The position numbers and the translations under genes were made by a program. DNA of 64,000 nucleotides from Candidatus Levyibacteriota bacterium (GTDB lineage Bacteria; Patescibacteriota; Microgenomatia; Levybacterales; UBA12049). Location: contig JACPLG010000008.1 of NCBI GenBank assembly GCA_016186625.1, forward strand, positions 16,071 to 80,070. The letters run 5' to 3'. The notes below the pieces were generated by a model, which was given only the letters and a program-made list of their open reading frames with translations, was not told the origin of the DNA and did no database searches. Of the stretch, positions 4,595 to 47,533 are shown in pieces; within the stretch, counting starts at the first letter, position 1, and every line of letters starts with the position of its first letter.

Positions 4595-4610
4595 TTGTTA
4601 GGCCAGTTAG

Positions 4611-5807: not shown

Positions 5808-5872
5808 ATATCATCTTCTTTGTTATATTATATATAACGAACTTCCCCCCGAGCAATCGGGGGTGATTTTTA

Positions 5873-6459: not shown

Positions 6460-6488
6460 ATTCTTAATCATAGCATATATTTTTTGCA

Positions 6489-6600: not shown

Positions 6601-6695
6601 TTTCATTCGCTTATTATCTCAAAAGCCTCAGCTTTTGTCAAAAATTTTGAGAATTATATTGGTTTAGCTTGCTAAATACAAATTTCCAAACAAAA

Positions 6696-6992
6696 TTAAT
6701 ATATCCAGAATATCGTAACCTCAGAACTCTCTGATGGATTTGGCGTTGGACGGCTTGCCCGTTGACGATTCAAATCCTCCCACTCAGCAAGAGCCCAAGC
6801 CGACAAAATAAGAGATAATCCCAATACTACAGTAGCTGCAGCAATTTCCCTTCGAGATGGATTTGGATTTACGAATGTTAATTTTTCTTCCCCTATTTTC
6901 TGAGAACCCGTTCCGATCTCTCCAGATATGTCAACAATTTGCTCTATTACTTCATTATTAATTCGTTCTGTTCCTGATGACATTATTCCCAC
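6696..6992 (-). CDS. Hypothetical small membrane protein. It overlaps the racemase start and is doubtful.
   Basis: An ORF with one predicted TM segment. No recognised domain. Confidence 0.25.
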   Translation of the reverse strand: MGIMSSGTERINNEVIEQIVDISGEIGTGSQKIGEEKLTFVNPNPSRREIAAATVVLGLSLILSAWALAEWEDLNRQRASRPTPNPSESSEVTIFWIY

Positions 6993-7695: not shown

Positions 7696-7836
7696 GTAAA
7701 GATCCGAAAGTAACTTCTGAAAGCACGCCTGAATCTTCTGCTAGAAGTAACATTAATCTTTCCAGATCTCTTCTGGCCCTTTTTAAATTCTCATCAGTAA
7801 AAGAATCTGCTCCTTTCCGCCTTGCATCCAGATCTA

Positions 7837-8630: not shown

Positions 8631-8957
8631 AAAAAACCTCGCCCCAATCCCGATTTAATCGGGACAAGGGCGAGGATTCTCGCGGTACCACCTTGTTTTA
8701 CTAATTTGCCACTAAAAAATCCCCGTCGGGGGATTATTACTTGATAGCTAAAATAGCCTTATTCAAGTGCTCCGTTTCCGACACACTCTTTCTGCTGTAA
8801 CGGGCTTACCCGTAAACCTTAATTGTCTCCTTTAGGGTTTCAGCTCCGGAGGGTAATTCAAAGTTTTAAGTTCGGGGAGTCTTTCATCAGCCGCTCCCTT
8901 TCTTTTGTCACCTTAAAACTTCTACTGCGTCTCCATCAAAGCCTTTTGTTAAATTGT
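8631..8957 (-). promoter_or_regulatory. T-box riboswitch leader comprising a promoter, Stem I, a Stem III-like hairpin, and an antiterminator/terminator
   Basis: Minus-strand promoter TTGACA(8993-8988)-N17-TATTAT(8970-8965). Conserved T-box sequence AGGUGGUACCGCG (plus 8680-8693). Terminator CCUCGCCC...GGGCGAGG+U6 (8637-8679). Stem I has a K-turn (GGC-UUU-GA / GGAGC) and helix AAGUUUUAAG/CUUAAAACUU. The specifier loop has AGUA on the 5' side and UGAAUUAC on the 3' side. Confidence 0.65.
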
Positions 8958-15021: not shown

Positions 15022-15369
15022 TCATGATCCAGACTGAGGATTTTCAGCTGGTTTTGTCCGCGCAGCAACAACGTGACGAGGAAACTGTGTTTCGAAGCGA
15101 ATGAAACCCTCATAAGCGAAAAAATTATCTTGTAGTTTTTTTGTAGCAGGATCAACAATAGTTCCGCTCCAAACATCAGCTCTTTCTGGGTCCCAGACCA
15201 AAAATAATCCATTTCCCCTTATTTTTGTTGATGGCCGTAAATATTCCCTTAATACCCCATCTGGTAGTAGCCATGGGCCTTTTGTGGGAATATCTACCAC
15301 TTCGAATCCATCTCTTTCAAGGGTCGGTTCACGATCAGGAATAGGAGTGGCGGTTTCTGTCATGGGCAA
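15022..15369 (-). CDS. Hypothetical protein, relatively GC-rich
   Basis: ORF only. No recognised motif. Confidence 0.35.
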   Translation of the reverse strand: MPMTETATPIPDREPTLERDGFEVVDIPTKGPWLLPDGVLREYLRPSTKIRGNGLFLVWDPERADVWSGTIVDPATKKLQDNFFAYEGFIRFETQFPRHVVAARTKPAENPQSGS

Positions 15370-15399
15370 ATTATAACTTGTTTAATCAAAAAATTAAAG

Positions 15400-15482
15400 T
15401 GGGCGAGGAGGGAGTCGAACCCACACAGCCTTGCGACTAGTAGTTTTTGAGACTACCGCGTATACCATTCCGCCACTCGCCC
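15400..15482 (-). tRNA. tRNA-Leu with anticodon CAA and a long variable arm
   Basis: The minus-strand sequence GGGCGAGUGGCGGAAUGG...GGUAGUCUCAAAAACUACU...GGGUUCGACUCCC...CUCGCCCA folds as a class II tRNA. The anticodon loop is CU-CAA-AA. Confidence 0.8.
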
Positions 15483-24089: not shown

Positions 24090-24091
24090 AA

Positions 24092-24133
24092 ATAGCAAAT
24101 AGCAAATAGCAAATAGCAAATAGCAAATAGACA
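24092..24133. repeat. Tandem heptamer (AAATAGC)x5-6. It is related to the GCTATTTACTATTT motifs at 58-98, 42447-42490 and 45753-45790.
   Basis: Direct inspection of the sequence. Confidence 0.8.
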
Positions 24134-25110
24134 AACGTTAGTAGGGAAGAGAGGTTAGTAGAAGGTATCAAAAGCATCAGAGGTATCAAAAGCATCAGAG
24201 GGAGAGCGATTCTAAAATTAATAATTTATTGCGGTTATTAAAAGAATTAAACAGGACCAAAGGTGGGGAAGAGGAGAGGGTGGAATTCTGATGATGCAGT
24301 TTGAGATACTGAATGTTGATATAGTTTGATATAGATAATGATTAAAATATTATAGGACTAAAAATTATAATTTTTAGTCTCAGATGGAGGATTTCACGAG
24401 ATTTTGCGACACTTTTCACAGCCAGGCTGGCTCGTTTGATCGGAAGCTAGAGGCGGAGCGGGTATGAGTAGAATTACATATCGGGAAATGAATGTGTATC
24501 TCTCTTATTTTCAGCCTCGAAACTAATCGTTTTCCCTGCAAAGTCAGGCTAAACGCCACTAAAAAAGAAAAAAATACGAATGTCTATTCTTACAATTCTT
24601 GAGGCTAAGAACTTACGTTTGGATTGACTAGACAAGCTAAACTCGACCTATGTGGAAAACTCGTTTCCTGGGGAAGAAAACAAGTGATAAACTTATCAAA
24701 AAGTATAATAAAATACTCAGGGAATTAAATATCAATGCCTTAAATCGAAGTACAGTGTCTTCCATTTATCTTCCCGAGCCGATCTACATAATTTTGGACA
24801 TGTGTCAGGCGCTGGGAGAGAGGAAGTGATAATGTCGTAGAATAATACTTTTACGACGTCACGGAGACTAGTCTTTCAGAGAAGACCTCTTTTAACCCCA
24901 TTTATTTTATCAGTATTTATCTGAAATTTTAAATTCGTTTAATTCCTTGTAGTATTCATCTCCCGATTTTCCTAATCGGTACAATATACCGCTATCCCCC
25001 GCTATAGGACATATGTTATTTATTTTTTCGAGGCTAAATGAAGCTAAATTTCAATTACTATCACACTCATCCAGCCTTGGAGAAGTTGTTTAGAGCCTAA
25101 GAATATAAGC

Positions 25111-25599
25111 TTATGAGTTATCTTCTTGTAAACTAGCAATTTCTCTGAGACGGTCAGGATCGACAATGCGATAAACAGTATGTTCTCCTCGCCATTCTTC
25201 CTCAGTTTGCTCTGCTTCTATAGCTCCTTCTCTAGCAAGCTGCGCAAGGGATTGGCTTAATGCGCGATAAGCAGGTGAATCTAGTCCTTTTCTCAACTGC
25301 CCCTTTGCCGAAAGAATTGTCCGTTTATCAAAAGGGTTTGCATATGGATCAAGTCCTGCGCGGTCTCTTAGGGGATTTCTAGTGATTGTAAGTATATCCT
25401 CTGCAATGCGCCTTTGAGTGTAGTCTTGAGGCTTAAAAGGTTTTATAAAAGAAACGTGATCTGCTACAGCTTCTATTAACCTGCGAACTAATGGAGTTTT
25501 AGTTGATTGACTACTTTCACTAGAACCTGGAGCTGCGTCTCTACTCGTATTTTTCCCAAGTCCTGGGGTTCTGAATTCCGAAACTCCTACTTCTGGCAT
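25111..25599 (-). CDS. Hypothetical protein; the first cassette of the island
   Basis: GC-richer ORF. Start context is TATAAATTAGTT-ATG (leaderless-type). Confidence 0.4.
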   Translation of the reverse strand: MPEVGVSEFRTPGLGKNTSRDAAPGSSESSQSTKTPLVRRLIEAVADHVSFIKPFKPQDYTQRRIAEDILTITRNPLRDRAGLDPYANPFDKRTILSAKGQLRKGLDSPAYRALSQSLAQLAREGAIEAEQTEEEWRGEHTVYRIVDPDRLREIASLQEDNS

Positions 25600-25634
25600 A
25601 ACTAATTTATATCACTTGCTTATATCCCATTCAA

Positions 25635-25874
25635 CTATGAGAAAGGTTTCATCCAGCCCCGAGTGACTCTTTGTGCTTTTCGTTTGCTCTGAAGATTTTG
25701 CTCTTCAATTATTTCAACGCCCGGAAGGCCTTTTTCTCCCATAATAAGTTTTGCCCTGACGCAAAGAAAATTCTTTGGCTCTTTCCGGATAATAACAAGA
25801 AAATATCCGCCTTCTGTTTTTCGTGCCCATTCCTTGTACTCTGGCGTGTACCACGTCACAAACCACTTCTTCAT
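25635..25874 (-). CDS. Hypothetical small protein; a cassette gene
   Basis: The start codon directly follows the conserved module CTGCTATAATTGCCTC-ATG. Confidence 0.4.
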   Translation of the reverse strand: MKKWFVTWYTPEYKEWARKTEGGYFLVIIRKEPKNFLCVRAKLIMGEKGLPGVEIIEEQNLQSKRKAQRVTRGWMKPFS

Positions 25875-25876
25875 GA

Positions 25877-25980
25877 GGCAATTATAGCAGAGTTGTGCTT
25901 AGGGTTTTTGGTGTCTGAATGTACCTTCCCACTTGGAATGTGGGAAGCAAGATTCTATCATTCATTGGGGGAATTATAGC
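25877..25980. repeat. Left copy of a roughly 105-bp direct repeat. It has module half-sites at both ends, a hairpin CTTCCCAC-N7-GTGGGAAG, and a minus-strand 27-codon ORF (MNDRILLPTFQVGRYIQTPKTLSTTLL).
   Basis: About 95% identical to 31853-31966. Confidence 0.85.
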
Positions 25981-25995
25981 AGTATAGCAGAAGAG

Positions 25996-26601
25996 TTATC
26001 TTTGAAGAATTTTAATAGCGATATCTCGCCCCAGAATCTTTGAAAGTTCCACCCAGACAATAACAATTTGCTCCATCAGTATAAATGATTCATTTCCTCC
26101 TAGATCATAGATTTTTCCAAAACCAATTTGTTTGGCAAGTTTGGTTGCTATCTTTTTCCCGCGAGTACTGTCTCCCCCAACAAACATATCTATTTTTTCA
26201 CCTTTGTAAATTGGGTTTTCCATATTTTTAAATCCGGTTGTATTAAAACACCTCACAATATCTTTTGTGTTTGTGTAAGCAAGAAGTGCCTCGGTAGTTG
26301 TACCGTAAGGTTTTGGTACTCCTCGAAATGCATTCATTACATCAATTATAACTTTGCCAGAAATATCTCCCATATGCTTGGCAATCTCCTTTGTTGCCCT
26401 AGGATCAGCAGCAGTTACAATTACGTCTGCGTTCTTTACTGCTTCAGAAATTGAATGAGCAGAGATATTTTTTGAAAGAAGCCTTTTTACTTTCGGCTTG
26501 TTTTCATCCCTAACGCCCAAGAAAACCCTATGCCCAACTTCTTCAAATCTCTTGGCAAGAGTTCCGCCCACATCACCAGCGCCAATAATTGCAATTTTCA
26601 T
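25996..26601 (-). CDS. NADP oxidoreductase, coenzyme F420-dependent family (Rossmann; ProC-like)
   Basis: MKIAIIGAGDVGGTLAKRF dinucleotide-binding motif. Length and layout fit F420_oxidored. Confidence 0.6.
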   Translation of the reverse strand: MKIAIIGAGDVGGTLAKRFEEVGHRVFLGVRDENKPKVKRLLSKNISAHSISEAVKNADVIVTAADPRATKEIAKHMGDISGKVIIDVMNAFRGVPKPYGTTTEALLAYTNTKDIVRCFNTTGFKNMENPIYKGEKIDMFVGGDSTRGKKIATKLAKQIGFGKIYDLGGNESFILMEQIVIVWVELSKILGRDIAIKILQR

Positions 26602-27092
26602 AAATTTTTATTGATATTTTTGTAAAAATCGTAGTGAGGGATTTCTTCTTCAGTCGGTGGACCAAATATTTTATGCCATTTTTTAAGATAAGCAAGGCTG
26701 ACTTTGAAAGGATAGTCTTTTTTGTTCCTCTTTTTAACTCTTTCCCAAAGAACATTAAGTGGTGCATCTAAGAAAAAAAGCTCTATCCTTAGACCAGCTT
26801 TTTTGAGTTGGACTTTGTGGTGGTCTCTATCTACTTTTGTCCAAAATCCATTTTCCAGAATTACATTTACGCCAAGATTGGCTAATATTATCGCTTGCTC
26901 GAACATGAGTTTTTCAAGTGGAGTCCTTATCCTTTTTGCCTCATCCATGTCAGTTGGGTCTTTTAGAAGGGGAATAATCCACTCATCTGGACAAAACCTA
27001 ACAGCTTTTCTTTCTTTTTCCAGTTTTTTGGCAAATGTAGTTTTTCCAGCCCCCGGAAGACCACAGACCATAATAACTGTTCCCTTTTTCAT
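26598..27092 (-). CDS. P-loop NTPase (AAA_33, zeta-toxin or kinase-like)
   Basis: VCGLPGAGKTTFAKKL Walker A. The ATG abuts the conserved module. Confidence 0.55.
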   Translation of the reverse strand: MKKGTVIMVCGLPGAGKTTFAKKLEKERKAVRFCPDEWIIPLLKDPTDMDEAKRIRTPLEKLMFEQAIILANLGVNVILENGFWTKVDRDHHKVQLKKAGLRIELFFLDAPLNVLWERVKKRNKKDYPFKVSLAYLKKWHKIFGPPTEEEIPHYDFYKNINKNL

Positions 27093-27116
27093 GGGGCAAT
27101 TATAGCAGAAGAATAA

Positions 27117-27371
27117 TTATTTTCTATAGATTTCTCGTCTGTGGCCTACCCTGAGAATTACAATGTTTTGTTTGTCTATATCAAAAACTATTCTGTAGTT
27201 TCCAACCCTGTAACGATAAGTGCCAATAGATGAGTTTATGAGTTTTTTAGAAAGTCCTTTCGGGTCCTTTGAAAGTTCTTCCAGCTTCTTTTTTATTCTT
27301 TTCTTTGCAATACTGTCAAGTTTTTGGATATCTTTGACTGCGGTTTTAGTATAGAGGAGCTTATAAGCCAT
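27117..27371 (-). CDS. Type II toxin, RelE/ParE family
   Basis: 84 aa with a C-terminal ...YRIVFDIDKQNIVILRVGHRREIY fold signature. Confidence 0.8.
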   Translation of the reverse strand: MAYKLLYTKTAVKDIQKLDSIAKKRIKKKLEELSKDPKGLSKKLINSSIGTYRYRVGNYRIVFDIDKQNIVILRVGHRREIYRK

Positions 27372-27619
27372 TAAACTTCGCCAAAAACTTTGTCGTGTGT
27401 TAAAAAGTCACCATTTTCATACTCATTTCTTGCCCTCCTTATACTTGCAAGATATTTTTTGTCTGCAAGAGCAAGTAAATCTTCAAAAAGATCAATATTT
27501 ACCAAAGCGGAGGTGATTTTACCTTTTCGTGCAACCAAAAGAAAATCTTTCTTTTTATTAACTTCTGAAAGAGTATCTGATAAATTATTTCTAAGGACTG
27601 TAGAGTTTACAATATTCAT
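27371..27619 (-). CDS. Type II antitoxin, Phd/YefM family
   Basis: 82 aa with a Phd/YefM N-domain (VNSTVLRNNLSDTLSEV...). It overlaps the toxin start. An upstream operator-like palindrome GTACAC-N5-GTGTAC lies within a second promoter. Confidence 0.8.
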   Translation of the reverse strand: MNIVNSTVLRNNLSDTLSEVNKKKDFLLVARKGKITSALVNIDLFEDLLALADKKYLASIRRARNEYENGDFLTHDKVFGEV

Positions 27620-27682
27620 GTTAAATTCAATTATACACTACAAGTGTACATTGTCAACGGGGCAATTATAGCAGAGTAAAAT

Positions 27683-28723
27683 TTAAAGAGAAAACTCTTG
27701 CTTGTAAAAATTAATTGTATTTGTTACAGCTTCTGACCAGCCGTTGGGTTGCAGATTATGATCTGCTCCTTGATATTTAAAATAAGCAGCATCTACTCCA
27801 TTTCCTTCAAGAGTCTCTACCAGTTCATCCGTCCACCAGTATGGTATTTCCTGATCCCCTGTCCCCTGGTGGACTTGAATTGGCGCTTTAATCCAGCGAT
27901 AATATTTCTCGGGAGAAAACAACTGGGTATCATAAAGCTCTTCAAAATCCGAAAGAGATTTTCGCATGGCCTTTCCCTGGTCATCTAACTCATCTGTGTA
28001 ATATAAAATGGAATAAGGAAAAGATTTGCTAACCGGTGCCCAAAGAACAGTCGGATATGTCACGCCACTAATTGCAAGTACAGATAATGCAATATGCCCT
28101 CCGTTACTATGTCCCCAAAGTCCAACATTCTCTAAATCTGCAGAAATAGTTCCTACGTAATCTGAATCAAGTCCTTTGTTTAAAGTGGGCAAAGATGATA
28201 AAAGAGTGAGCGCAGTTGTATATGTTTGAAATCTTCCCTCAAAAGGATTTGCGGATGGGCTGGCTGACTCTCCAAACCCCAAAAAATCAGACGCAAGCGT
28301 AATAAAGCCATTTTTTGAAATTTCCTCTGCTGATGGTTGAGTTCCGGCTCCGGGTTTATAAGTGTCCTGCGGGATAAAACCGCGAAACATGACAATCACA
28401 GGATACTCCCCTTCTATCTTAGGAATATTTATAAGGCCTGAAACTTTTTCCATTTTTTCACTTCCTGGAGTTTTGGGAGTTGAAAAATAGAAAATTTGAG
28501 AAAAAGAGTCTTCGTCCTCGCTGATAACGGACCCAAGTGTTATTTGATTTTGGGGGAATTTGGTATTTTTTAAATTCTCAAAAGTGTACGAAAGAAGTGG
28601 TTTTGGAATAATTTTTTCCCTTATGATATCTTTCTTAAAATAAAAGTTTTGGAAAATATAAAAAGATTCAGTGGCAATAATGGCAAACAAAACAATGAAT
28701 AACAATGCTAAAGCTTTTCTCAT
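27683..28723 (-). CDS. Secreted or membrane-anchored alpha/beta hydrolase (S9/dienelactone-hydrolase-like)
   Basis: GHSNGG nucleophile elbow with downstream Asp/His candidates. N-terminal signal/anchor. Confidence 0.65.
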   Translation of the reverse strand: MRKALALLFIVLFAIIATESFYIFQNFYFKKDIIREKIIPKPLLSYTFENLKNTKFPQNQITLGSVISEDEDSFSQIFYFSTPKTPGSEKMEKVSGLINIPKIEGEYPVIVMFRGFIPQDTYKPGAGTQPSAEEISKNGFITLASDFLGFGESASPSANPFEGRFQTYTTALTLLSSLPTLNKGLDSDYVGTISADLENVGLWGHSNGGHIALSVLAISGVTYPTVLWAPVSKSFPYSILYYTDELDDQGKAMRKSLSDFEELYDTQLFSPEKYYRWIKAPIQVHQGTGDQEIPYWWTDELVETLEGNGVDAAYFKYQGADHNLQPNGWSEAVTNTINFYKQEFSL

Positions 28724-29395
28724 TTAGGAAATTAAAGCGGTTATTGCTTCCATGAATTTAGTTGTGGAAAAGTCTGAATCGTGAAGGACTTTATAGCCAA
28801 GTGTAATACCGGCGATTTTTTCATATTTTTTTGCTCTTATCGCAAGAAGTTTGGGGTAACATCTTTCCAATGCTTCAAAATCTGTCTCATTTATTTTCTT
28901 ATTAAATGCGTTTCCCCAAATAACAGGTTTTGGATCTTGAAGATAAAGCCTATACATCTTTTTCTTAACAGAATCTGGTGTTTTAAAATAAATCACTTTC
29001 GTAAGACGGGTTAACTTCTTCAATGCACCCTCTCCTATATAAATTACGCTTCCTGTTGTATCTATCACAATATTTTTATTATTAGTAGATTTCTCAATAC
29101 CGGATAATATTTCTTCCATTACTTTTTCTTCAAGCTGTAAGTATTTTTTGCTTGTAGCGGGATACCTCCTGTCAAACGGTTGACCCATCCATTTAGATAC
29201 ATCTGCTATCCCGGAATACCCCAAATGTTTAAGCTCTCTTTCTAACTTTTCTTCAATTAAATCATCGCAACAATATCTTCTGAAGCCATAAGACCCAAGT
29301 TTTTTTGACCAATAAGTCTTGCCGCTACCAGACATGCCAACAAGCGAAATTTTCATCCTGTTAGATATCTTGTTTCTTTTGGTCATTCTTGTCAA
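28724..29395 (-). CDS. P-loop kinase (shikimate-kinase-like fold). The start may be the internal MKISLVG.
   Basis: LVGMSGSGKT Walker A, and an AroK-like N-terminal layout. Confidence 0.45.
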   Translation of the reverse strand: MTRMTKRNKISNRMKISLVGMSGSGKTYWSKKLGSYGFRRYCCDDLIEEKLERELKHLGYSGIADVSKWMGQPFDRRYPATSKKYLQLEEKVMEEILSGIEKSTNNKNIVIDTTGSVIYIGEGALKKLTRLTKVIYFKTPDSVKKKMYRLYLQDPKPVIWGNAFNKKINETDFEALERCYPKLLAIRAKKYEKIAGITLGYKVLHDSDFSTTKFMEAITALIS

Positions 29396-29496
29396 ACCCG
29401 TTAAAATCTAACGGGATTCATGGGGAAATTATAGCAGAAGGAAATTTTAATACCTAAATGTTGTATACTTATTTTGCGAAAGGAGGTGAAGTAAAA

Positions 29497-29745
29497 ATGG
29501 CTCTGTTTTTAGGTGTACATAAAATTTCTGCTGGAATGCAAGAATCAGAAATTGTGGAAGGATACAACAAATATAAGGAAAGTGCCAGAGCAAAAGGGTT
29601 AAATCCACTTTCTGCTGTATTTTCTTTAGAGAAAGGATTTGCCCATTGTCAAACCGAAGCACAAAGTGCTGATCAGGTACGGGAAGCACATACAGCAGTA
29701 GAAATTCCGCTGGAGGATGTAGTTGAAGTCAAACCTATTACTTAA
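29497..29745 (+). CDS. DUF4242-family protein
   Basis: The pattern MALFLGVHK...GL..L...FS.EKG.AHCQTEA.SADQVREAH matches DUF4242. An AGGAGGTG RBS lies 8 nt upstream. Confidence 0.6.
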   Translation: MALFLGVHKISAGMQESEIVEGYNKYKESARAKGLNPLSAVFSLEKGFAHCQTEAQSADQVREAHTAVEIPLEDVVEVKPIT

Positions 29746-29878
29746 TGGCAATATTTGTGCAGACACGAACTTTTGCCTCGGAATTTCCGGCTTCCTGTTC
29801 TAAAATCAGTATACCGCCAATAGATTTTGGGCAATTATAGTACCCCACTTCGCACTAGGCTACGAGAGACGAGGGGAA

Positions 29879-30130
29879 TTATTTGTAAATTGTTGAACGA
29901 TGGCCTGCGGTAAGTATTAAAATTATTTTATCTTTTTTATTTACTTTATAAACTATTCTATAAACCCCAATCTTGTATGAATATTTTCCAGTGAGTTCTC
30001 GCGTTAGGGGTTTTCCGATATCAGGATTTTCTTTTATATCCTCAAATATATTTGAGAGTGCAAGACGGTGGCGATAAGATATATTTTTAAGCTCTTTTTT
30101 TGCCCTTGTGGTTAGTTTTAGCCGCAACAT
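29879..30130 (-). CDS. Type II toxin, RelE/ParE family
   Basis: 83 aa with the C-terminal YRIVYKVNKKDKIILILTAGHR. Confidence 0.75.
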   Translation of the reverse strand: MLRLKLTTRAKKELKNISYRHRLALSNIFEDIKENPDIGKPLTRELTGKYSYKIGVYRIVYKVNKKDKIILILTAGHRSTIYK

Positions 30131-30398
30131 GCAAACCTAATTCTTTTTTTACATCTTCCCAATCATGAACTTTTCCCAGAGCTTCATCTTTTTCTCCTTG
30201 CCGAATTGCCTTCATTAAAGAGGGGTCTGATAAGATTTCCGTGGTTTCTTTCCATGATTCAAATTCAGCATGAGACATAATTACCGCAGCCGGAACCCCG
30301 TTTACGGTTATAATATACTCATCAAGCTTATTTTTTGCGTTATCAACGATTTGAGTTAATTCTTCTCTTGCTTTGGTGACAGGTAAAGTTTGTGTCAT
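30087..30398 (-). CDS. Type II antitoxin, Phd/YefM family
   Basis: Phd N-domain (VTKAREELTQIVDNA...YIITVNGVPAAVIMS). Confidence 0.75.
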   Translation of the reverse strand: MTQTLPVTKAREELTQIVDNAKNKLDEYIITVNGVPAAVIMSHAEFESWKETTEILSDPSLMKAIRQGEKDEALGKVHDWEDVKKELGLHVAAKTNHKGKKRA

Positions 30399-30469
30399 TA
30401 AACCATCTTACAGAATTATGTACAATTTGTCAATGGGGCAATTATAGCAAATAAGGATGGTTTACAATT

Positions 30470-31231
30470 TTAAGTATCAAGCATATCCCATTCATCTCCT
30501 AAAACCCAACGTAAAGTTGATAATTTGCCATTGATCATTCCCCATTCAAAATCTGTGTAAGGTCCCAGATTCTTTTTCCCATATTTCTTTTCTACTTTTT
30601 TTGCTGCCGACAAAGCACCTTCGACAATATCCTTAGGAGTGTTTTTACCAAGATGACCACCAGTTTTCATTAGCTGATGGCGGTCGTACCAAATTTTGTC
30701 AAAGTATTCCTCTTCTGCTTCTAGAATGATTTTAATACTCCGAATAGGACCCGAAATCAAGTCATATTTTCTAAGCAGCGAAATTTTCTTTCTAGATAAC
30801 TTTTCAAGCATCGGTCGTTCCCAGACTTTAATTTTAAAAGGTGGATTATTTGTTTTCTTGTAAGTTTCGATATAATCCTTGGCCGGATTAGATAGAAAAT
30901 TTGAAACTATAAAAATCACGCCATCTGGTCTTTCTGCTTCTGCCCATGTTAGGAGATTTCGAAGTGCTTCAGGCGGTACGCCCTTAGTATGATGCTTGCA
31001 GTCTGTGAACCATTTTTCAAAATATTTACTTTCGTCAATATCAATTCTTTCTTCTTGGAAAACGATGTCCCTGCCTCTGTCAGAAGGACTAGTATTGAGA
31101 CCAGTTCCCTTTCGCCAATCTACATTGAAATATCCTAATTTCTGAAGTAGATCAAAACAAAACTCCTCAAATTCTATTGAAGTTAGGTGTTTAAAAGATG
31201 TAGTATTCATAGCTTGGTAGGTTGGGTGCAA
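30470..31231 (-). CDS. Restriction-endonuclease-like (Mrr_cat-type) domain protein
   Basis: The N-terminal FEEFCFDLLQKLGY...DRGRDIVF resembles the Mrr catalytic domain. The C-terminus is unknown. Confidence 0.4.
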   Translation of the reverse strand: MHPTYQAMNTTSFKHLTSIEFEEFCFDLLQKLGYFNVDWRKGTGLNTSPSDRGRDIVFQEERIDIDESKYFEKWFTDCKHHTKGVPPEALRNLLTWAEAERPDGVIFIVSNFLSNPAKDYIETYKKTNNPPFKIKVWERPMLEKLSRKKISLLRKYDLISGPIRSIKIILEAEEEYFDKIWYDRHQLMKTGGHLGKNTPKDIVEGALSAAKKVEKKYGKKNLGPYTDFEWGMINGKLSTLRWVLGDEWDMLDT

Positions 31232-31378
31232 TAATATTACAAATTGAGCCTATTTGCAAATTTTGTGGTGCAATTATAGCAGAGTTAATGGATAATATTT
31301 TGTTTGCCTGAATTACAATACTACGCTATAGCGTAGTATTGTACTGCTATCTAATTATTCTATATTACCGCAGGGCAA

Positions 31379-31849
31379 TTATAGCAGAAGGAGAAAATAA
31401 CAGATTCCCAAAAAGTAAACGACTAAAAAAAGAATTATTAACAATAAATGAATTTCATGTGTGGTAAAAAATCGTGCAGGTCTAGGCATTCTGTATGGAC
31501 GATCGATCAGTACTTCTGCTCCTTCCGAATACTTTTTACCCTTTCCATTTAGCAAGTTCCAACTTGAAGGTTCAGATTCTCTTACCTGCGCCATTCGAAA
31601 TTGAAAATAGTTTGTTCTTTTTTGGTAAGAAAGCAACCAAATAAGACTAACAATAAAACCAATTATACAAAGTATTAGCAAAAACGTATTCGAACCTAAA
31701 TTTTTGTCCCAAACCACAGCAATAACTGATCCTAAAATTGTGTTAGCAATTAAAAATATATTCGAAGTTTGCCAGAAAAGACTATCTTCATTTTGTTGTA
31801 TTTTTAAAGCAATTTCATATTGCTTTATTTGCATTTCTTCTTTTGTCAT
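31379..31849 (-). CDS. Hypothetical membrane protein (3 TM)
   Basis: The ATG follows the module CTGCTATAATTACCCA. The stop codon lies inside the next module (CTTCTGCTATAA). Confidence 0.4.
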   Translation of the reverse strand: MTKEEMQIKQYEIALKIQQNEDSLFWQTSNIFLIANTILGSVIAVVWDKNLGSNTFLLILCIIGFIVSLIWLLSYQKRTNYFQFRMAQVRESEPSSWNLLNGKGKKYSEGAEVLIDRPYRMPRPARFFTTHEIHLLLIILFLVVYFLGICYFLLLL

Positions 31850-31852
31850 TGG

Positions 31853-31966
31853 GTAATTATAGCAGAGTTGTGCTTAGGGTTTTTGATGTCAGAATGTACC
31901 TTCCCACTTGGAATGTGGGAAGCAAGATTCTATCATTCATTGGGGGCAATTATAGCCCTTCGGCTC
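31853..31966. repeat. Right copy of the roughly 105-bp direct repeat (27-codon ORF variant MNDRILLPTFQVGRYILTSKTLSTTLL)
   Basis: See the left copy at 25877-25980. Confidence 0.85.
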
Positions 31967-31994
31967 TGCTCAGGGCAAGCAGAAATTATTTTCT

Positions 31995-33962
31995 TTAATT
32001 AAAAACTACGGTTGATTCGTTGGAGCAAGTAGTAGTTCCTTCTTCACAAACTTTATAAATATAGGTGCCGCTTCCTCTCTGGTTAATATTATCAGTGTAG
32101 AATCCATCATTTGCTGTAGTTGCCACTAAAACGCTGTCTCGATACACATAAACATTAGTTGTATTTGCACCAGACCAGTTAAGATCAGCCTTTTGCAGCC
32201 CTTTGACTTTATATCCTGTAGTTGTTAAAGAAATATCAGGTGCTTCAACAACAGTTATTACTACATCATCCGAGGCTGATGCTCCGTCGTTGTCTGTAAC
32301 CGTTAAAGTGACGGTATGTGTACCTAAGGCGAAATCAACGGTAAGAGTAGCGCCGCTTCCCAGCCATATCCCACCCTCGTACCAATCATAAGAAACAATA
32401 CTTCCGTCAGGATCATAAGAGCCGGAACCATCCAGAGTGACGGCTTCTGTGCCATTACCGTCATTATCAATAACTGTCTGATCTGCGCCGGCGTCGGCAA
32501 CCGGCGAATCATTAAAATTGTCTACCACTACGTTCACCTGATCGCTTTTTGTTTGAGATGCAGTATCTGTGGCAACAGCTTTTATCACGTGGCTTCCTTC
32601 TGCTGCAGTTGTTGTATCCCAGTTTGCTTCATACGGGATTTGGGTATCAGAGCTAAGCAAAACACCGTCAATATAAAAATCAACGCTAACTACCCCGTTA
32701 TCATCTGAGGCATCAGCAGTAATAAGAATTGTTCCCGAAACCGTAGCTCCTTCTGACGGACTGGTAATGGAAACAGCAGGGAGTTGATCAACCGGCCCGG
32801 GAACACTTGCTGCCGCTGCCGCGTCCACCCTGCCATAACCATAATGCTTGTCCCGGCCCGAACTGCCAAGATCTACGGCCGTACTATTCATTCTACCCCG
32901 AACATCGTCAAAACCGGCCTTTATAACTAAGGCCGCGGTACCGGCAACATGCGGACTAGCCATGGATGTTCCGCTATAGTTTCCGTAACCTCCTCCGGGA
33001 AGCGTTGACTTGATACTTACCCCGGGACCTGAAATTTCAACCGCAGGACCGGTACTTGACCAGCTTGCCCGCTTATCATCGCTGTTGGTTGCCGCAACTG
33101 CCACCAATGAATCCCAACGGGCAGGATAGATGACATTATCTCCGTTTCCGGGTGGGTTGCCGGAGTTGCCTGCCGCCGCAATATGGAGTATTCCCAAAGC
33201 CGCAGAATTGTCAAAAGCCGCCTTAACCGTAATTCCCGGGTCTCCGGAGCTCCCATAGCTGTTATTGGTGATCCCAACACCGTCATTTACCGCTTTTTCA
33301 AGCGCCGCTATAACATCGCTGTAGCTTCCGCTACCGTTTGACCCCAATACTTTATAAGCATAAACCTTAGCCTCAGGCGCTACCCCAACAACGCCTACGT
33401 CATTGTCTTCTGCTGCAATTGTTCCTGAGACATGCGTTCCATGGCCATTATCATCCATTGGATCAGCGTCATCATTATAAAAATCATAACCGCCGGCATA
33501 ATTTGCATCCAAGTCCGGATGGGTATAATCAATTCCTGAATCAATTACGCCAACCTTAACTCCCGTTCCTTTATTACCGCCGTCATGCACTGTTCCTGAG
33601 CCAATCTTTTTTACCCCCCAAGTACCGTCAAGTTCGGCATCTACGGCGTAAACTTTAATATCCGGTTCTATTACCTTAACGTTGGGGTTATTAAGAAGTG
33701 CTTCTTGGGCATTTGTCGGAATGTTTGCCGCAATTGCGGGGACTAAATTATATGTGTATTTAATTTCTCCGCCGTGTGCTTTTACCAGTGCCTGTTCATT
33801 TTTTCCAGGAGTTTTTGTAAATCCAATAATTACATCCTCCCGTGAAGATGCCTGAGGCGCCCTGGGCGTTTGTGAATTAACTTGTGCCGCAAATGGCGTA
33901 AAAACTAAACCAACAGCCAATATTGCAGCAGTTAAAATTTTGCTAAGTCTTTTTAACCACAT
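31995..33962 (-). CDS. Secreted S8 (subtilisin-like) serine peptidase with C-terminal Ig/PKD-like beta domains
   Basis: Signal peptide. Catalytic triad motifs DSGI, HGTHVSGTIAA and GTSMASPHVAG. Confidence 0.85.
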   Translation of the reverse strand: MWLKRLSKILTAAILAVGLVFTPFAAQVNSQTPRAPQASSREDVIIGFTKTPGKNEQALVKAHGGEIKYTYNLVPAIAANIPTNAQEALLNNPNVKVIEPDIKVYAVDAELDGTWGVKKIGSGTVHDGGNKGTGVKVGVIDSGIDYTHPDLDANYAGGYDFYNDDADPMDDNGHGTHVSGTIAAEDNDVGVVGVAPEAKVYAYKVLGSNGSGSYSDVIAALEKAVNDGVGITNNSYGSSGDPGITVKAAFDNSAALGILHIAAAGNSGNPPGNGDNVIYPARWDSLVAVAATNSDDKRASWSSTGPAVEISGPGVSIKSTLPGGGYGNYSGTSMASPHVAGTAALVIKAGFDDVRGRMNSTAVDLGSSGRDKHYGYGRVDAAAAASVPGPVDQLPAVSITSPSEGATVSGTILITADASDDNGVVSVDFYIDGVLLSSDTQIPYEANWDTTTAAEGSHVIKAVATDTASQTKSDQVNVVVDNFNDSPVADAGADQTVIDNDGNGTEAVTLDGSGSYDPDGSIVSYDWYEGGIWLGSGATLTVDFALGTHTVTLTVTDNDGASASDDVVITVVEAPDISLTTTGYKVKGLQKADLNWSGANTTNVYVYRDSVLVATTANDGFYTDNINQRGSGTYIYKVCEEGTTTCSNESTVVFN

Positions 33963-34289
33963 AGTAAAACTTTCAAAATTGTTCTGTTCAAATGCTATTT
34001 TACCACATAATGCAAGTCCTGTGAAATTTAATTGGAATCTGAGACAGTCTTAAGAACAAAGTTTAAAGGGGAAATTCTTCCAAAAATTTATAATTTGCGC
34101 CGCTTCTTGAGAGGTGTGACTCCATCAAAACAAAAGAATCAACTCTGTCTTGCCATAAAACTTCCTCGTCTAATTTTTTAACTTCGAACTTAGAAAATGA
34201 ACCGGGATTGAATCGAATCAAAGTCATATGTATAAGAAATTTTTTGTTTTTGTCGGCATCTCAAAGTAGACAACAGGATTCATCCCAAT

Positions 34290-34745
34290 TCAAATTTTTT
34301 CTCCATGTCTTCGGAAGCGATTTATTGCCTCTGAAATTTCCTTTGATTCATTTGTTAAATAGTCAATATTAGCAGTATCATCGCTAATGAAATCGTCAAA
34401 TCTCCCGCTTCTTGAGGTATAATACGGTTGAATCATGGGGTGATCTGCTTTAAATCCAATTCTTCCTTCCAGATCGTTAGGATCTATCATGTCAAAATAA
34501 TAAACGGAATATGGATGTTTTTTCCCATCTCTCCCGATTTCAAGAAAAACTTCCCTTCCAAACCTATAGCCGTTCCAATAAATAATTAAATTATGGGAGA
34601 TTTCTCCACTTGGGCCAATGTATATTGAATCAATAAATGAAGATATAACATCCGAGGCAGAAGTTCCGTGAGGATTGACAGGTTGCTCAATTGCTCCTCT
34701 AAATTTTTGCAAAAACCTTCGTCCTGCCTCAATCATAGTCAGCAA
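34290..34745 (-). CDS. Hypothetical protein
   Basis: ORF only. Confidence 0.35.
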   Translation of the reverse strand: MLTMIEAGRRFLQKFRGAIEQPVNPHGTSASDVISSFIDSIYIGPSGEISHNLIIYWNGYRFGREVFLEIGRDGKKHPYSVYYFDMIDPNDLEGRIGFKADHPMIQPYYTSRSGRFDDFISDDTANIDYLTNESKEISEAINRFRRHGEKI

Positions 34746-34981
34746 TTATATTCTCTTTGACTTGACAACACAAATTTCCCGGCCTAGAATAAAACCATAA
34801 AGAAGAATTATCGCAGAATTTGCGCTTATTACTGCGACGCGAGCATCGCAGAATGATCGATTCGCCTATGTATAAATCGGAACGCTCTGGTTCGAAAAAA
34901 TTTCAAATGTGGCACTCGCCTACTCTTTCTGCTAATGGACAATTTTTTGAAGATTTAGCCATTAAATTTAACTTATAGTTT

Positions 34982-35914
34982 ATGGAAACAAAACTGCCCG
35001 ACCTTATCGATGATTTTTTGGAATACCTTGAGATCGAGAAAAACTGCAGCAAGCTTACAATTAGAGACTACAGGCACTACTTGGAAGTGTTTAACGACTG
35101 GTATATTAGAACAATTCCTGACAAATCACTGGAAAAATTAGACCTCTCTGATATAAGACGCTACAGAGTTTTTCTTTCCAACAAGATTGATGAGAAAGGA
35201 GTAGGTCTAAAAAGAGTTACCCAAAATTATTACATAATAGCACTTCGTTCATTCCTCCGATTTCTTATAAAAAATGATTACAAAACCCTTGAACCGTCAA
35301 AAATCGATTTGCCAAAAACAGAAAGTAGGTCTTTGAAGTTTTTGGAAAGAGAGCATGTGGAGCGTTTGGTCACTGCACCGGATACCACAAAGGAGGAAGG
35401 GATTAGGGACAGGGCAATTATTGAATTATTATTTTCAACAGGTCTTCGCGTATCAGAATTAACCAAGTTAAACAGGGACCAAATTAATCTTGAGAGACGT
35501 GAGTTTGGTGTAATTGGAAAAGGAGGACGAGGACGAATTGTGTTCGTTTCTGATAGAGCTTCAGAATGGATAAAAAATTACCTCAATAAGAGGAAGGATA
35601 CTTTTAAGCCAATGTTTATAAGATATTCCGGAAAAGTTATTGAGGAAGATAATGGAGAGAAAATGAGACTCACTCCAAGGTCAATTGAGCGAATAGTTAA
35701 AAAATATGTCAGGGCAACTCGCCTGCCGGTGGATGCTACAGTTCACACTCTAAGACATAGTTTTGCAACAGATCTCTTGACAAACGGCGCAGACCTTCGC
35801 TCAGTCCAGGAAATGCTTGGCCACAAAAATATTGCTACAACTCAGATCTATACACATATAACAGATAAGCAACTTAGGGAGGTACACAAATCATTCCACA
35901 GCGGAAATAAATAA
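34982..35914 (+). CDS. Tyrosine site-specific recombinase (XerC/XerD-like integrase)
   Basis: The C-terminal catalytic box HTLRHSFATDLLTNGADLRSVQEMLGHKNIATTQIYTH, and an R...K...H.R..H.Y arrangement. Confidence 0.85.
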   Translation: METKLPDLIDDFLEYLEIEKNCSKLTIRDYRHYLEVFNDWYIRTIPDKSLEKLDLSDIRRYRVFLSNKIDEKGVGLKRVTQNYYIIALRSFLRFLIKNDYKTLEPSKIDLPKTESRSLKFLEREHVERLVTAPDTTKEEGIRDRAIIELLFSTGLRVSELTKLNRDQINLERREFGVIGKGGRGRIVFVSDRASEWIKNYLNKRKDTFKPMFIRYSGKVIEEDNGEKMRLTPRSIERIVKKYVRATRLPVDATVHTLRHSFATDLLTNGADLRSVQEMLGHKNIATTQIYTHITDKQLREVHKSFHSGNK

Positions 35915-45512: not shown

Positions 45513-45775
45513 ATTAGATTGCTCGGAGTCCTGTTCAATCTCGGAAAACTCGGAAAACTCAGCGGACCAGATATCCTCAGGGATATCAGAAATTCAGAAC
45601 TCCGGATCTCCCGCCTGCCATGCCTGGCACTGGCGGGCAGGCTGATTATCCGATCGTCTGAGTTTTCTGGCAATCTGAGTAATCATCTGAGTATTCTTAA
45701 AAATCCTCTTGCAGGTGAACCATCCTAAAGTTCCACCCCTCGCGTATTTTACTACGTATTTTTGCTATTTACTAT

Positions 45776-47533
45776 TTGATATTTAATATTGAATTTCCTA
45801 CTATTATAGTAATGCCCGCATATCAATCAAGTTCATCAAGTCAGTCTTCACTTCTGGATGCGCTATTAGCCTCGCATTTTATATCACAGTCTCAATATAA
45901 TGAAGTCAAATTGAGAGCAATTTCTCAGGGGATACCTGAAGAAGATGTACTCGTGTCTATGGGACTGGTGAGTGAAGATAGGCTATCAGAAACTAAAGCG
46001 AAGATTCTAGGTGTTCCCTACATTTCACTTGATTCCACCTCATTTTCTCCCCAAGCATTAGGTTTTGTTTCTCAGGCTGTGGTGCAAAGATTTAATTTAA
46101 TACCGTTCTCATATGATGACAGATCAAAAACTCTTTCAATTGCTATGGCAAATCCGGTGGACTTGGATGCAATTTCTTTTGTCAGGCAAAAAACAGGACT
46201 TAACATTAAAACTTTTGCCGCTTCTCCTTCTGCCATAAAACAGGCAATTGATATTCAATACAAACAGGAATTAGTCGGCCAAGTTGGCGAAGCGCTTAAA
46301 GAAACCGAGGATGTAACAAAGACAAAAACAGTTGACGTAACCCAAATTGCCCAGATAATCAAAGAAGCTCCAATTGCCAAAATAGTATCAACTATCCTTG
46401 AATATGCTGTAAAAAGCAGGGCCTCAGATGTGCACATTGAGCCGCAGGAAGAAAGAGTAAGAGTACGCTACAGGATTGACGGAATTTTATATGACCGTCT
46501 AAGTCTTCCTAAAAGCGTACAAGAAGCAGTAGTTTCAAGAATCAAAATTCTGTCTGAAATGAAAATAGATGAACATAGAATTCCTCAGGATGGCCGTTTT
46601 AATTTTAAAATAGAAGATAAAGAAGTTGATCTTCGCATCTCTGTGCTTCCTGCTGTGCACGGTGAAAAGGTTGTAATGAGGTTACTCCGAAAAAGCGGAG
46701 GAATACCCACTCTTGAGGAGCTTGGCCTAGTGGGCACAGCACTTAGAAGTCTTGAAAATAATATGCTTCGCCCCCACGGAATAATTATTGTTTGTGGGCC
46801 TACTGGTTCAGGAAAAACAACTACCCTTTATGCGGTTCTTAGCAAACTCAACAGCCCAAAAGTTAATATTCTAACTCTTGAAGACCCAGTTGAGTATGAG
46901 ATTCCTAGCGTTAATCAGGTGCAGGTGAACCCCGCGGTAGGGCTTACTTTTGCAACAGGCCTTAGGGCTTTTCTTAGACAAGACCCTAACATAATTCTTG
47001 TTGGAGAAATACGCGATAAAGAAACTACAGACTTAGCAATTCAGGCAGCGCTCACTGGTCATTTAGTTTTTTCAACGCTTCATACTTCAAATGCTTCAGG
47101 AGCACTACCAAGACTTGTTGATTTAGGTGCTGAAACATTTCTCCTCTCCTCTACCATGAATGCAATTGTAGGGCAGCGAATTGTAAGACGTCTTTGCCAG
47201 AACTGTAAAGCCCCCTACCCTCCCCCAGAACAAATTTCTGAGATGATAAAAAAGGACCTGGGCACGCTTATGCCTCCTGGAGAATTCAAGCTTTTTAGGG
47301 CTCAGGGATGCTCTGAGTGTGATAATTCAGGCTACATTGGGAGAATCGGAATATTTGAAGTGCTTCCTGTGACAGAAAGAATAGCTGCTATGATATTAAG
47401 AAGAGCAGATAGTATCAATTTGGAAAAAGAAGCAATTTTAGAGGGAATGATAACAATGAAACAAGACGGGTACTTTAAAGCTCTAAAAGGAATAACAACG
47501 GTTGAGGAAGTTTTGCGAGTAGCGCAGGAATAA
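45776..47533 (+). CDS. pilB: Type IV pilus assembly ATPase PilB/GspE
   Basis: GSPII_E N-domain. Walker A GPTGSGKTTTLYA, Asp/His boxes and a tetracysteine motif (CQNCK...CSECDNSG). Confidence 0.9.
   Translation: MIFNIEFPTIIVMPAYQSSSSSQSSLLDALLASHFISQSQYNEVKLRAISQGIPEEDVLVSMGLVSEDRLSETKAKILGVPYISLDSTSFSPQALGFVSQAVVQRFNLIPFSYDDRSKTLSIAMANPVDLDAISFVRQKTGLNIKTFAASPSAIKQAIDIQYKQELVGQVGEALKETEDVTKTKTVDVTQIAQIIKEAPIAKIVSTILEYAVKSRASDVHIEPQEERVRVRYRIDGILYDRLSLPKSVQEAVVSRIKILSEMKIDEHRIPQDGRFNFKIEDKEVDLRISVLPAVHGEKVVMRLLRKSGGIPTLEELGLVGTALRSLENNMLRPHGIIIVCGPTGSGKTTTLYAVLSKLNSPKVNILTLEDPVEYEIPSVNQVQVNPAVGLTFATGLRAFLRQDPNIILVGEIRDKETTDLAIQAALTGHLVFSTLHTSNASGALPRLVDLGAETFLLSSTMNAIVGQRIVRRLCQNCKAPYPPPEQISEMIKKDLGTLMPPGEFKLFRAQGCSECDNSGYIGRIGIFEVLPVTERIAAMILRRADSINLEKEAILEGMITMKQDGYFKALKGITTVEEVLRVAQE

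Follow-up and report, generated by a model that had tools for sequence, protein, structure and literature searches.

At 25093..34894 of a 64,000-nt stretch of chromosome from a Candidatus Levyibacteriota bacterium lies a slot of variable gene content, next to the gene of a XerC/D-like tyrosine recombinase, and the slot holds an array of small accessory genes separated by copies of a short sequence that we call the module. The whole stretch is referred to as the window, and coordinates are window positions; L-numbers denote comparison loci, which are metagenome contigs, and MFOV01 is a Levybacteria genome. An earlier note on this DNA had described a cassette-like array in a variable region with 11 module sites on the minus strand, and both observations stand: the gene sets of the slot differ among relatives, and the listed positions are right within a few bases. 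By comparing the slot with its counterparts in relatives and with module-bearing loci at other chromosomal sites, we find that the module is the point at which cassettes change neighbours, and we hold with moderate confidence that it is a portable leaderless promoter doubling as a short-homology crossover point for cassette shuffling.

The module has the consensus (cTT)CTGCTATAATTGCCCC, and its 11 minus-strand copies are spread over ~6.1 kb (25875-31958). A search with the 18-mer TTCTGCTATAATTGCCCC, allowing up to three mismatches, returned nine matches in the window, all on the minus strand and all within 25875-31867, against a chance expectation of 0.09 (none of the shuffled sequences attained nine); a looser scan with the 16-mer core added two degenerate copies, at 31943-31958 (GGGCTATAATTGCCCC) and 29828-29843 (GTACTATAATTGCCCA). 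The remaining ~58 kb of the window hold no TATAAT-containing module match outside the array, none was found in the conserved backbone of the relatives L125, L127 and L130, and across ~120 kb of backbone (window and relatives), which includes the highly expressed EF-P and gyrA/B, there is no copy. On these zero counts in the 58-kb flanks and the three backbones we rejected the possibility, against which the earlier note had cautioned, that the repeat is simply the genome-wide consensus promoter of core genes, although the class of promoter to which it belongs is found genome-wide.

The features of the slot, on the minus strand unless stated, are given here in the direction of transcription, starting from the recombinase end. 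What is left of a LigT gene (2',5' RNA ligase family; 34065..34251), 187 nt of its 3' end, is 81% identical to L130 8519-8705, and the alignment indicates that the module following LigT in L130 has been lost in the window. It is followed by an S8 subtilase of 655 aa (31995..33962, by Pfam) with Big_7 and PKD domains, which is probably a recent foreign acquisition because its GC content is 0.46 against ~0.36 around it; a decayed copy of a module-plus-hairpin leader lies just upstream of this gene, and its stop codon abuts the split module copy 1 (GGGCTATAATTGCCCC, 31943..31958). The splitting sequence is a 24-nt GC-rich hairpin mini-element (31955-31978) between TTCTGC, the 5' half of the module, now displaced to 31979-31984, and TATAAT. 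Downstream of copy 1 is a 77-nt gene-less cassette (31866..31942, fold z-score -3.3), with a hairpin of 8-bp stem and a 27-codon mini-open reading frame (mini-ORF; 31857-31940) that terminates at the TAA belonging to the next module. That module, copy 2 (CTGCTATAATTACCCA, 31850..31865), leads directly into the ATG of a 156-aa 8xMP membrane protein (31379..31849; Pfam PF24838, E = 8.9e-17), and the stop codon of this gene in turn is the TAA in the TATAAT of copy 3 (CTGCTATAATTGCCCT, 31372..31387). No start codon follows copy 3; an 89-nt gene-less cassette (31283..31371, z-score -4.1) comes after it, with a perfect 30-nt palindrome at 31314-31343, and its homologue at L133 9371-9455 likewise lies between two modules, with the palindrome degraded.

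Copy 4 (CTGCTATAATTGCACC, 31267..31282) stands 56 nt upstream of the ATG (31210) of an Mrr_cat restriction-endonuclease-domain protein (30470..31210; Pfam PF04471, E = 2.2e-12), which has a promoter-like site of its own. Copy 5 (TTGCTATAATTGCCCC, 30435..30450) directly abuts the promoter (TTGACA, 17 nt, TAAGAT, at 30433-30405, then 6 nt and ATG) of a toxin-antitoxin pair at 29879..30398, namely a Phd/YefM antitoxin (30087-30398) and a ParE toxin (29879-30130; Pfam PF02604 and PF05016). Degenerate copy 6 (GTACTATAATTGCCCA, 29828..29843) is aimed into a convergent SCO4226-like gene on the plus strand (29458-29745), as had been noted earlier; the DUF4242 assignment of that gene is slightly under the Pfam cut-off, and the other cargo annotations of the earlier note hold by Pfam. 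Fused to copy 6 is a GC-rich element, CCCCTCGT..GCGAAGTGGGG (29844-29878), and at 29829-29878 the sequence matches L167 3443-3491 and L169 2595-2643 with 90% identity.

Directly after copy 7 (CTGCTATAATTTCCCC, 29422..29437) begins a putatively leaderless upstream ORF (uORF) of six codons, MNPVRF* (29401-29421), which overlaps a hairpin in the leader (29357..29421) of a two-gene cassette at 27683..29356, with a P-loop kinase-like gene starting at 29356 (28724-29356) and an alpha/beta hydrolase gene (27683-28723; both by Pfam). In L130 (8427-8503) the alignment reveals the same leader, VNPIKY* and a hairpin, upstream of the hydrolase, with conservative substitutions in the peptide and one compensatory change in the stem; L136 is without it, and the leader may be an attenuator. 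The kinase-hydrolase cassette is 82% identical to L136 2940-4606, and the hydrolase is 76% identical to that of L130. Copy 8, an exact 16-mer (27659..27674), is followed by the promoter (TTGACA, 16 nt, TATAAT, at 27657-27630) of a second toxin-antitoxin pair (27117..27619; Phd antitoxin 27371-27619 and ParE toxin 27117-27371, by Pfam), and copy 9, an exact 18-mer (27093..27108), leads directly into the ATG of another two-gene cassette (25996..27092), which encodes an AAA_33 P-loop ATPase (26598-27092) and an F420_oxidored-type reductase (25996-26601), again by Pfam. The reductase has a module of its own in front in L056, L140 and L170; the other P-loop cargo is annotated as AAA_18-like by Pfam.

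Copy 10 (CTGCTATAATTCCCCC, 25967-25982) is preceded by a partial duplicate (25983-25992), where the sequence reads TTCTGCTATA followed by CTGCTATAAT and contains the junction-like 8-nt duplication CTGCTATA. A second gene-less hairpin cassette (25891..25966) separates it from copy 11 (CTGCTATAATTGCCTC, 25875..25890), which is followed directly by the ATG of a 79-aa protein with no function assigned (25635..25874); homologues of this protein in L136, L167 and L169 are also module-headed. The second hairpin cassette lies within one copy of a repeat that brackets the array (25871-25971 and 31846-31946), a module-hairpin-module unit of 101 nt that is 95% identical between its two copies, and so the bracketing repeat of the earlier note is real. 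Conservation of its 27-codon ORF at the protein level is unsupported, because the two substitutions between the copies both change the amino acid (L to Q and S to P), and the unit looks like a non-coding hairpin rather than a coding sequence.

GC-rich mini-elements such as the one in copy 1 fall into two families, TTGCCCTGAGCnnAGnCGAAGGGC and CCCCTCGTAGCCTnnnGCGAAGTGGGG, which sit in fixed register 5' of modules with CTGC replaced by GGGC or GTGC. The 24-nt element of copy 1 is module-fused also in L029, L048, L106, L134, L138, L160 and L170, and such 24-nt inserts resemble small target-specific insertions within the module, a secondary feature of the system. A fused 5' hairpin of this kind is present in ~18% of modules (position 0 is G in 23 of 127 instances) and missing from the majority; the region 31943-31990 folds with a z-score of -2.9, and 29828-29880 with one of only -0.7. 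The elements may be small target-specific insertions or inter-cassette terminators.

When 127 non-redundant module instances from the window and related loci are considered together, conservation is restricted to positions -3 to +19 (~22 nt), that is, to cTT-CTGCTATAATTGCCCC-ATG: TG-n-TATAAT is invariant in 127 of 127 instances, the -35 region carries no information, and neither dyad symmetry nor an arm-spacer-arm layout is found. This agrees with the view in the earlier note that the repeated unit is a promoter and not an attC, the recombination site of integron cassettes. Numbering TATAAT as -12 to -7 puts the A of the following ATG at +1, the geometry of a leaderless mRNA, and from its sequence the module is thus predicted to act by itself as an extended -10 promoter, independent of a -35 element, and to start transcription on this A; the discriminator is a pyrimidine-rich 6 nt, TGCCCC. 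An ATG or GTG lies 0-2 nt past the module end in 101 of 146 modules (69%), with a median ORF of 143 aa. The window itself has fewer such cases than the eight, at 6-7 nt, that had been claimed: ATG follows TATAAT by 6-8 nt in six of the 11 modules (those at 31943, 31850, 29422, 27093, 25967 and 25875), and since two of these six ATGs begin 27-codon mini-ORFs and one begins the 6-codon uORF, the real genes predicted to be directly leaderless are three only, the 8xMP gene, the AAA_33 ATPase gene and the 79-aa ORF. The list of module-headed genes in the earlier note therefore stands for these three, the mini-ORFs and the uORF, and falls for the toxin-antitoxin pairs, which, like Mrr, start 33-56 nt downstream of a module and after -35/-10 promoter-like sites of their own. 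Stop codons lie 0-10 nt from modules, and the three that had been placed inside or against a module were confirmed as the TAA of TATAAT in the 8xMP gene and the two mini-ORFs.

Leaderless expression seems, as judged from upstream sequences, to be general practice in this Levybacteria genome. A Shine-Dalgarno-like core precedes only four of the 54 genes outside the slot, and TAnnnT is found 5-8 nt before the ATG in 12 of these 54, compared with 10% of all ATG triplets, its flanks being unlike the module. A near-identical 16-mer also occurs in a Saccharibacteria metagenome-assembled genome (L008), 6-21 nt upstream of two tRNA-Pro genes and one tRNA-Gly gene (4367-4382, 5396-5411 and 6973-6988), which suggests that the module sequence is close to an optimal promoter across the Candidate Phyla Radiation (CPR) and that some tRNAs may be transcribed almost without a leader; near-optimality would give a functional reason for conservation of the module across lineages whose cassette genes are only ~70% identical. 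In the window, a T-box leader lies at 8663-8948 (minus strand, 98.8 bits) and a tRNA-Leu(CAA) gene at 15399-15482 (minus strand), and the gene after this tRNA (15022-15363) has a module-like leaderless promoter, TATAATTTGCCCATG.

The extent of the slot was established by comparing the window with the 21-kb loci around three Xer orthologues (L125, L127 and L130), with BLASTN used to place the edges of homology. The backbone runs in the order EF-P, MFS, LGT, pseudouridine synthase, LytR_C, TPR, YebC, DUF5656, ~1 kb of noncoding sequence and the slot, and continues after it with Xer, (SIMPL), a small ORF, FolD, GyrA, H+-PPase and GyrB; homology stops at ~25092 and resumes at 34895. An exact look-up of the YebC protein returned no record. 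Between these edges the relatives hold other genes: an Asp/Glu racemase, a PLD-like protein and two unknowns in L125; the racemase and one unknown in L127; and the racemase, SurA_N, an alpha/beta hydrolase, LigT and one unknown in L130. A closer relative, L136, has a frame in common with the window (the 155-aa ORF, kinase-hydrolase, the 79-aa ORF and the 169-aa ORF) with other cassettes in between. Cassette turnover at 25093-34894 is demonstrated by these different gene contents and by the LigT remnant that the window keeps, and the relatives thus offer none of the identical gene order that the earlier note had named as an objection. The boundary of the island, which had been set at 24090, moves inward, as 24090-25092 is the conserved noncoding block.

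This block, ~1 kb long and situated after DUF5656, is 65-77% conserved in three Levybacteria relatives; it includes several invariant stretches and a conserved hairpin, GTCGTAGAATAATACTTTTACGAC, and genes converge on it from both sides. Rfam gave no credible match in the block or in the island. No cluster of DnaA boxes was found in the block, by which an origin of replication (oriC) was ruled out; it could be a non-coding RNA or mark a replication terminus. Inside it, at 24316-24334, is the 19-nt motif TTGATATAGTTTGATATAG, which in L125 (5492-5510 and 9896-9914) and L130 (4926-4944 and 9894-9912) is present as direct copies around the slot, the second ~90 nt upstream of xer. The window is without the xer-proximal copy, and the point from which it again aligns with the relatives (34895) is exactly the 3' end of the motif; the motif may be an operator or a site of the att or dif type, and no dif-like site beside xer was identifiable in the alignment of relatives. 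Several intergenic regions of the window, just upstream or downstream of genes, have tandem heptamers, (AAATAGC)n or (TATTTAC)n, at 24090-24138, ~60-104 and ~45760-45776, and an exact 18-nt tandem duplication lies at 24163-24198.

Comparison of arrays with one another locates the changes of neighbour precisely. L174 1-1610 and L167 870-2479 are 100% identical, and the identity ends 1 nt past a module, with unrelated cassettes beyond; L169 1083-2909 and L167 1931-3757 are 100% identical over 1827 nt beginning at a module's first base, and are unrelated upstream of it. In L144 modules are the meeting point of a LigT cassette, 96% identical to L130, and a peptidase cassette with 99.8% identity to L134, and L137, an independent contig, repeats one junction of L174 and diverges 1 nt after the next module. 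When modules were compared systematically in pairs, 18 pairs agreed downstream and differed upstream and 10 showed the reverse, all 28 of which switch at the module, and nine of 20 multi-member cassette clusters have at least two different neighbours. Descriptively, then, the module is a recombination junction, and events in the window point to it as well: the partial duplication, the mini-element inside a module and the module-flanked gene-less units. No fixed crossover point is derivable within the module, since its 5' and 3' variants go with the upstream or the downstream segment variably, which fits homology-driven exchange.

Arrays of this kind occur well beyond the window. A scan of species-representative genomes with the 16-mer was poorly specific and returned mostly chance singletons; the multi-copy loci among the matches listed, a lower bound (at least these), were in Levybacteria, Gottesmanbacteria and unclassified Patescibacteria. 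With the 19-mer, which is the module together with its ATG, 47 metagenome loci were found, many with 4-10 co-oriented copies. We counted 164 module copies in Microgenomates metagenome contigs, and the 112 cassettes that modules bound on both sides have a median of 563 nt and form 86 sequence clusters; the cargo is made up of small accessory enzymes and parts of toxin-antitoxin systems, namely PNPOx-like proteins, alpha/beta hydrolases, LigT, GNATs, RidA, nucleases and HigB-like toxins. The sites of the arrays are unrelated between loci, and include the S10 operon region and the position after typA. In L160 (contig Ga0209726_10000004, 574 kb) a 5-kb array of ~8 cassettes (2728-7864) lies between rpsJ and rplC and so interrupts the usually contiguous tuf-rpsJ-rplC-rplD-rplW region, in which neither tuf nor rpsJ has a module directly upstream, and in L133 an array starts 17 nt after the typA stop codon. 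The typA/bipA GTPase gene is found in four independent module-bearing loci (among them L133 5852-7541 and L171 2790-4262), and may be a second conserved insertion hotspot. An origin in phages was rejected: matches in viral contigs are single chance hits inside genes, and the context of the window is chromosomal (EF-P, YebC, FolD, GyrA/B, tRNA and the T-box leader).

The recombinase gene (34982..35914, plus strand; by Pfam and synteny) lies outside the slot. The earlier note saw the topology of an integron in its position while finding it not obviously an integron integrase (IntI), and it is the second of these judgements that survives. The protein is 100% identical to one encoded on a 238.5-kb contig of a Candidatus Levybacteria metagenome-assembled genome and has more than 120 orthologues with 78-88% identity, mostly annotated as XerD or tyrosine recombinase, and its synteny with FolD, GyrA and GyrB is fixed among relatives. 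NCBIfam models give 254 bits for XerC and 253 bits for XerD, both over the full length, compared with 113 bits in two fragments for the integron integrase model TIGR02249, whose cut-off is 265. A phmmer search with this protein as query found no Xer-like recombinase among the ORFs of ~56 array-bearing loci; clustering of the ORFs of these loci returned cargo and core genes, e.g. typA, and no recurrent non-cargo neighbour; and a Pfam scan of 50 cargo proteins found no transposase or integrase. In MFOV01 the large array (12 modules in 16 kb, MFOV01000012.1) and the Xer gene (MFOV01000017.1) are on separate contigs, and no terminal overlap, the signature of circular cassettes, was seen in the contigs examined. 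Xer is a conserved backbone gene, not IntI, and not shown to be part of the array system. An integron is accordingly rejected: Xer scores as XerC/D and belongs to the backbone, and the boundaries of the cassettes, judged by dyad symmetry, GTTRRRY core and Rfam, do not look attC-like.

A precedent for recombination at repeated promoters exists in T4-type phages, in which promoter-early stem-loop (PeSL) repeats, made up of promoter and terminator, lie on either side of ORFans in hyperplastic regions, mark the limits of the indels that separate close relatives and give rise to mini-circles, the shuffling having been shown experimentally (Arbiol et al. 2010, PMC2839356; Comeau et al. 2014, PMC4122927). 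We propose that the module is a chromosomal analogue of these repeats, and of the options in the earlier note we favour the dispersed promoter repeat driving modular gene gain, with exchange exactly at the module. A module plus an ORF would be a complete expression unit that needs neither a leader nor a Shine-Dalgarno sequence, and a large pool of small accessory genes with the same promoter would circulate among Levybacteria and related Microgenomates. Because every unit opens with the same 16-22 nt (module plus ATGAAA), the module would be the preferred site of short homology, and new joints would form there whenever a cassette is gained, lost, duplicated or swapped. Short-homology recombination might act by deletion or excision between direct repeats, or incoming DNA might be anchored in a common cassette or backbone gene and form its second joint at a module; GC-rich hairpins fused to the 5' side, acting as terminators or attenuators, would make the boundary a composite terminator/promoter junction. 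The outcome would be compact, co-oriented (stop)-(module)-(ATG...) arrays in variable slots of a conserved chromosome.

Several points weigh against this proposal. A homology of 16-22 nt is short for RecA-dependent recombination, and PeSL homology is ~100 bp, so that efficient cassette gain by such a route is something we infer; promoter activity and start site are likewise predicted. Intergenic spacers are so short that any gene-level indel breaks near a module, and five of the 11 modules in the window have no directly headed ORF. The discriminator TGCCCC is atypical, only one of 12 other leaderless promoters of the window resembling it, and copying or a second function, instead of promoter optimisation, may be why it is identical among cassettes. 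Finally, the comparative data are metagenome assemblies throughout, and a chimeric minority of junctions is possible; this concern is tempered by a common stretch below the usual assembler k-mers and by the occurrence of one junction in two independent contigs.

The module might instead be a promoter and nothing else, an optimal strong leaderless promoter that is kept by selection and travels as a passenger of transferred genes, with the junctions reflecting the compactness of the arrays; we consider this rather unlikely. The whole module can indeed be read as promoter elements, its host uses leaderless promoters generally, the near-identical 16-mer upstream of tRNA genes belongs to a distant CPR class, the stop codons close to modules leave few other breakpoints possible, and no recombinase was found. 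Such a promoter would not explain why in the 100%-identical pairs the edge of identity lies 0-1 nt from the module edge, why every pair in the junction screen switches there, why modules flank gene-less units of 76-89 nt and precede cassettes with complete promoters of their own, or why partial duplication and target-specific hairpin insertions occur inside the module; nor would it explain why a strong promoter is missing from EF-P, gyrA/B and the rest of the ~120-kb backbone, and from the position directly upstream of tuf and rpsJ in L160.

Site-specific capture, which would make the arrays a functional counterpart of integrons, is a further candidate, and a doubtful one: the module, with or without the hairpin, would be the core site of a recombinase acting in trans (the chromosomal Xer or an unrecognised protein), which would excise and reinsert circles of module plus cassette. 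If this were so, which we think improbable, the arrays would represent a previously unrecognised CPR capture system with a promoter-embedded core site of 16-19 nt, whose cassettes would arrive expressible as leaderless mRNA. All visible junctions coincide with the module, as such a system would have it, and the arrays resemble integrons in their statistics (co-oriented, mostly single-gene, small and diverse) and in their cargo of toxin-antitoxin pairs, GNATs and small hydrolases; module-flanked gene-less mini-cassettes, the partial duplication at 25983-25992, a conservation of the module beyond that of the other leaderless promoters in the window, the slot beside xer in the window and close relatives, and the 19-nt motif flanking the slot in L125 and L130 are also in its favour. 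The sequence of the module, lacking both dyad symmetry and an arm-spacer-arm layout, speaks against it, as do the lack of an inferable fixed crossover position, the absence of a recombinase in or beside ~56 array loci, the unrelated array sites, the backbone nature of Xer and its separation from the array in MFOV01, and the missing circular-contig signature.

Misjoining of metagenome contigs at a short repeat is very improbable as the general explanation, for although all comparison loci are metagenome contigs and the Logan contigs of the window organism break near repeats, the ~17-22 nt in common are shorter than final assembler k-mers, one alternative junction is present in independent contigs from different samples (L137 and L174), the sequences in which the slots of L125, L127, L130, L136 and the window differ are diverged and lie on long contigs, and the gene order of the window is found in four Logan contigs. 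A miniature inverted-repeat transposable element or Correia-like element was also rejected, as the module has no inverted-repeat partner and the 101-nt repeat occurs only twice, inside the array.

Among known systems, PeSLs are like the module in that a strong promoter motif is repeated directly upstream of small accessory ORFs in variable regions, indels and replacements are bounded by the motif, each gene has its own expression signals, and no dedicated recombinase is involved; in PeSLs a stem-loop is often fused to or overlaps the promoter, and here only about 18% of copies have a fused hairpin. The differences are that the module is found on CPR chromosomes and not in phages, that 16-19 nt are conserved rather than ~100 bp, and that it is of the extended -10, leaderless type without -35 box, AT-rich upstream region or Shine-Dalgarno sequence; moreover, PeSL mini-circles and promoter and terminator activities are experimental, whereas the module is known from sequence alone, and the comparison implies no sequence homology. 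Sedentary chromosomal integrons similarly have long co-oriented arrays of small, mostly single-gene cassettes with diverse and often unknown functions, in which toxin-antitoxin pairs and acetyltransferases are common, content varies among relatives and a short element marks every boundary. In contrast to them, the arrays described here are without IntI, occupy many chromosomal sites with no adjacent integrase, have a boundary module without an attC-like imperfect palindrome or GTTRRRY core (and no Rfam match in the island), and begin every cassette, on its 5' side, with a promoter, which most cassettes of integrons do not have, being expressed from Pc.

The pdif modules of Acinetobacter plasmids are bounded by 28-bp XerC-spacer-XerD sites of arm-spacer-arm layout in alternating orientation. 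The likeness is in discrete gene modules (including toxin-antitoxin pairs), short repeated sites and a candidate Xer enzyme, with xer beside the slot; the module differs in being 16-19 nt long, directly oriented in all copies and without dyad symmetry, and in that the other arrays are not near xer. Phage morons are autonomous promoter-gene-terminator units between backbone genes, with neither a common promoter nor long arrays, and recall the present cassettes as independent transcription units of accessory genes between conserved genes, e.g. the rpsJ-rplC array of L160. In the leaderless promoters of Deinococcus and Actinobacteria, degenerate -10 boxes lie 6-7 nt before the start codon and the flanks are not conserved. 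They have in common with the module TATAAT/TANNNT, 6-7 nt and ATG without Shine-Dalgarno, an arrangement that the host uses genome-wide; the difference is that the present arrays repeat one identical 16-19-mer, at which recombination junctions lie. A full-text literature search (CPR, Patescibacteria, Microgenomates and the module sequence) found no description of such arrays or of the sequence. The earlier claim that the system is undescribed thus holds for the literature searched and has to be tempered by the close conceptual precedent: its principle is known from the PeSLs of T4-type phages and its array statistics recall chromosomal integrons, and the system is not categorically new.

In CPR bacteria (Patescibacteria), whose genomes are tiny, the acquisition and expression of accessory genes are poorly understood. 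The data point to a route that would be both simple and general: a leaderless promoter of 16-19 nt would make any ORF expressible and offer a sequence for exchange, and this dual role would explain compact variable arrays even inside ribosomal-protein operon regions. If confirmed, the module would provide a sequence tag (CYNCPM in six-frame translations, or the 19-mer) for the flexible gene pool of Microgenomates in metagenomes, as well as a strong promoter ready for use in the genetics now emerging for Patescibacteria; it would allow a direct test of whether gene flux is driven by short-homology recombination or by a hidden recombinase; and it would extend the PeSL principle, in which regulatory repeats serve as recombination linkers, from T4 phages to cellular chromosomes.

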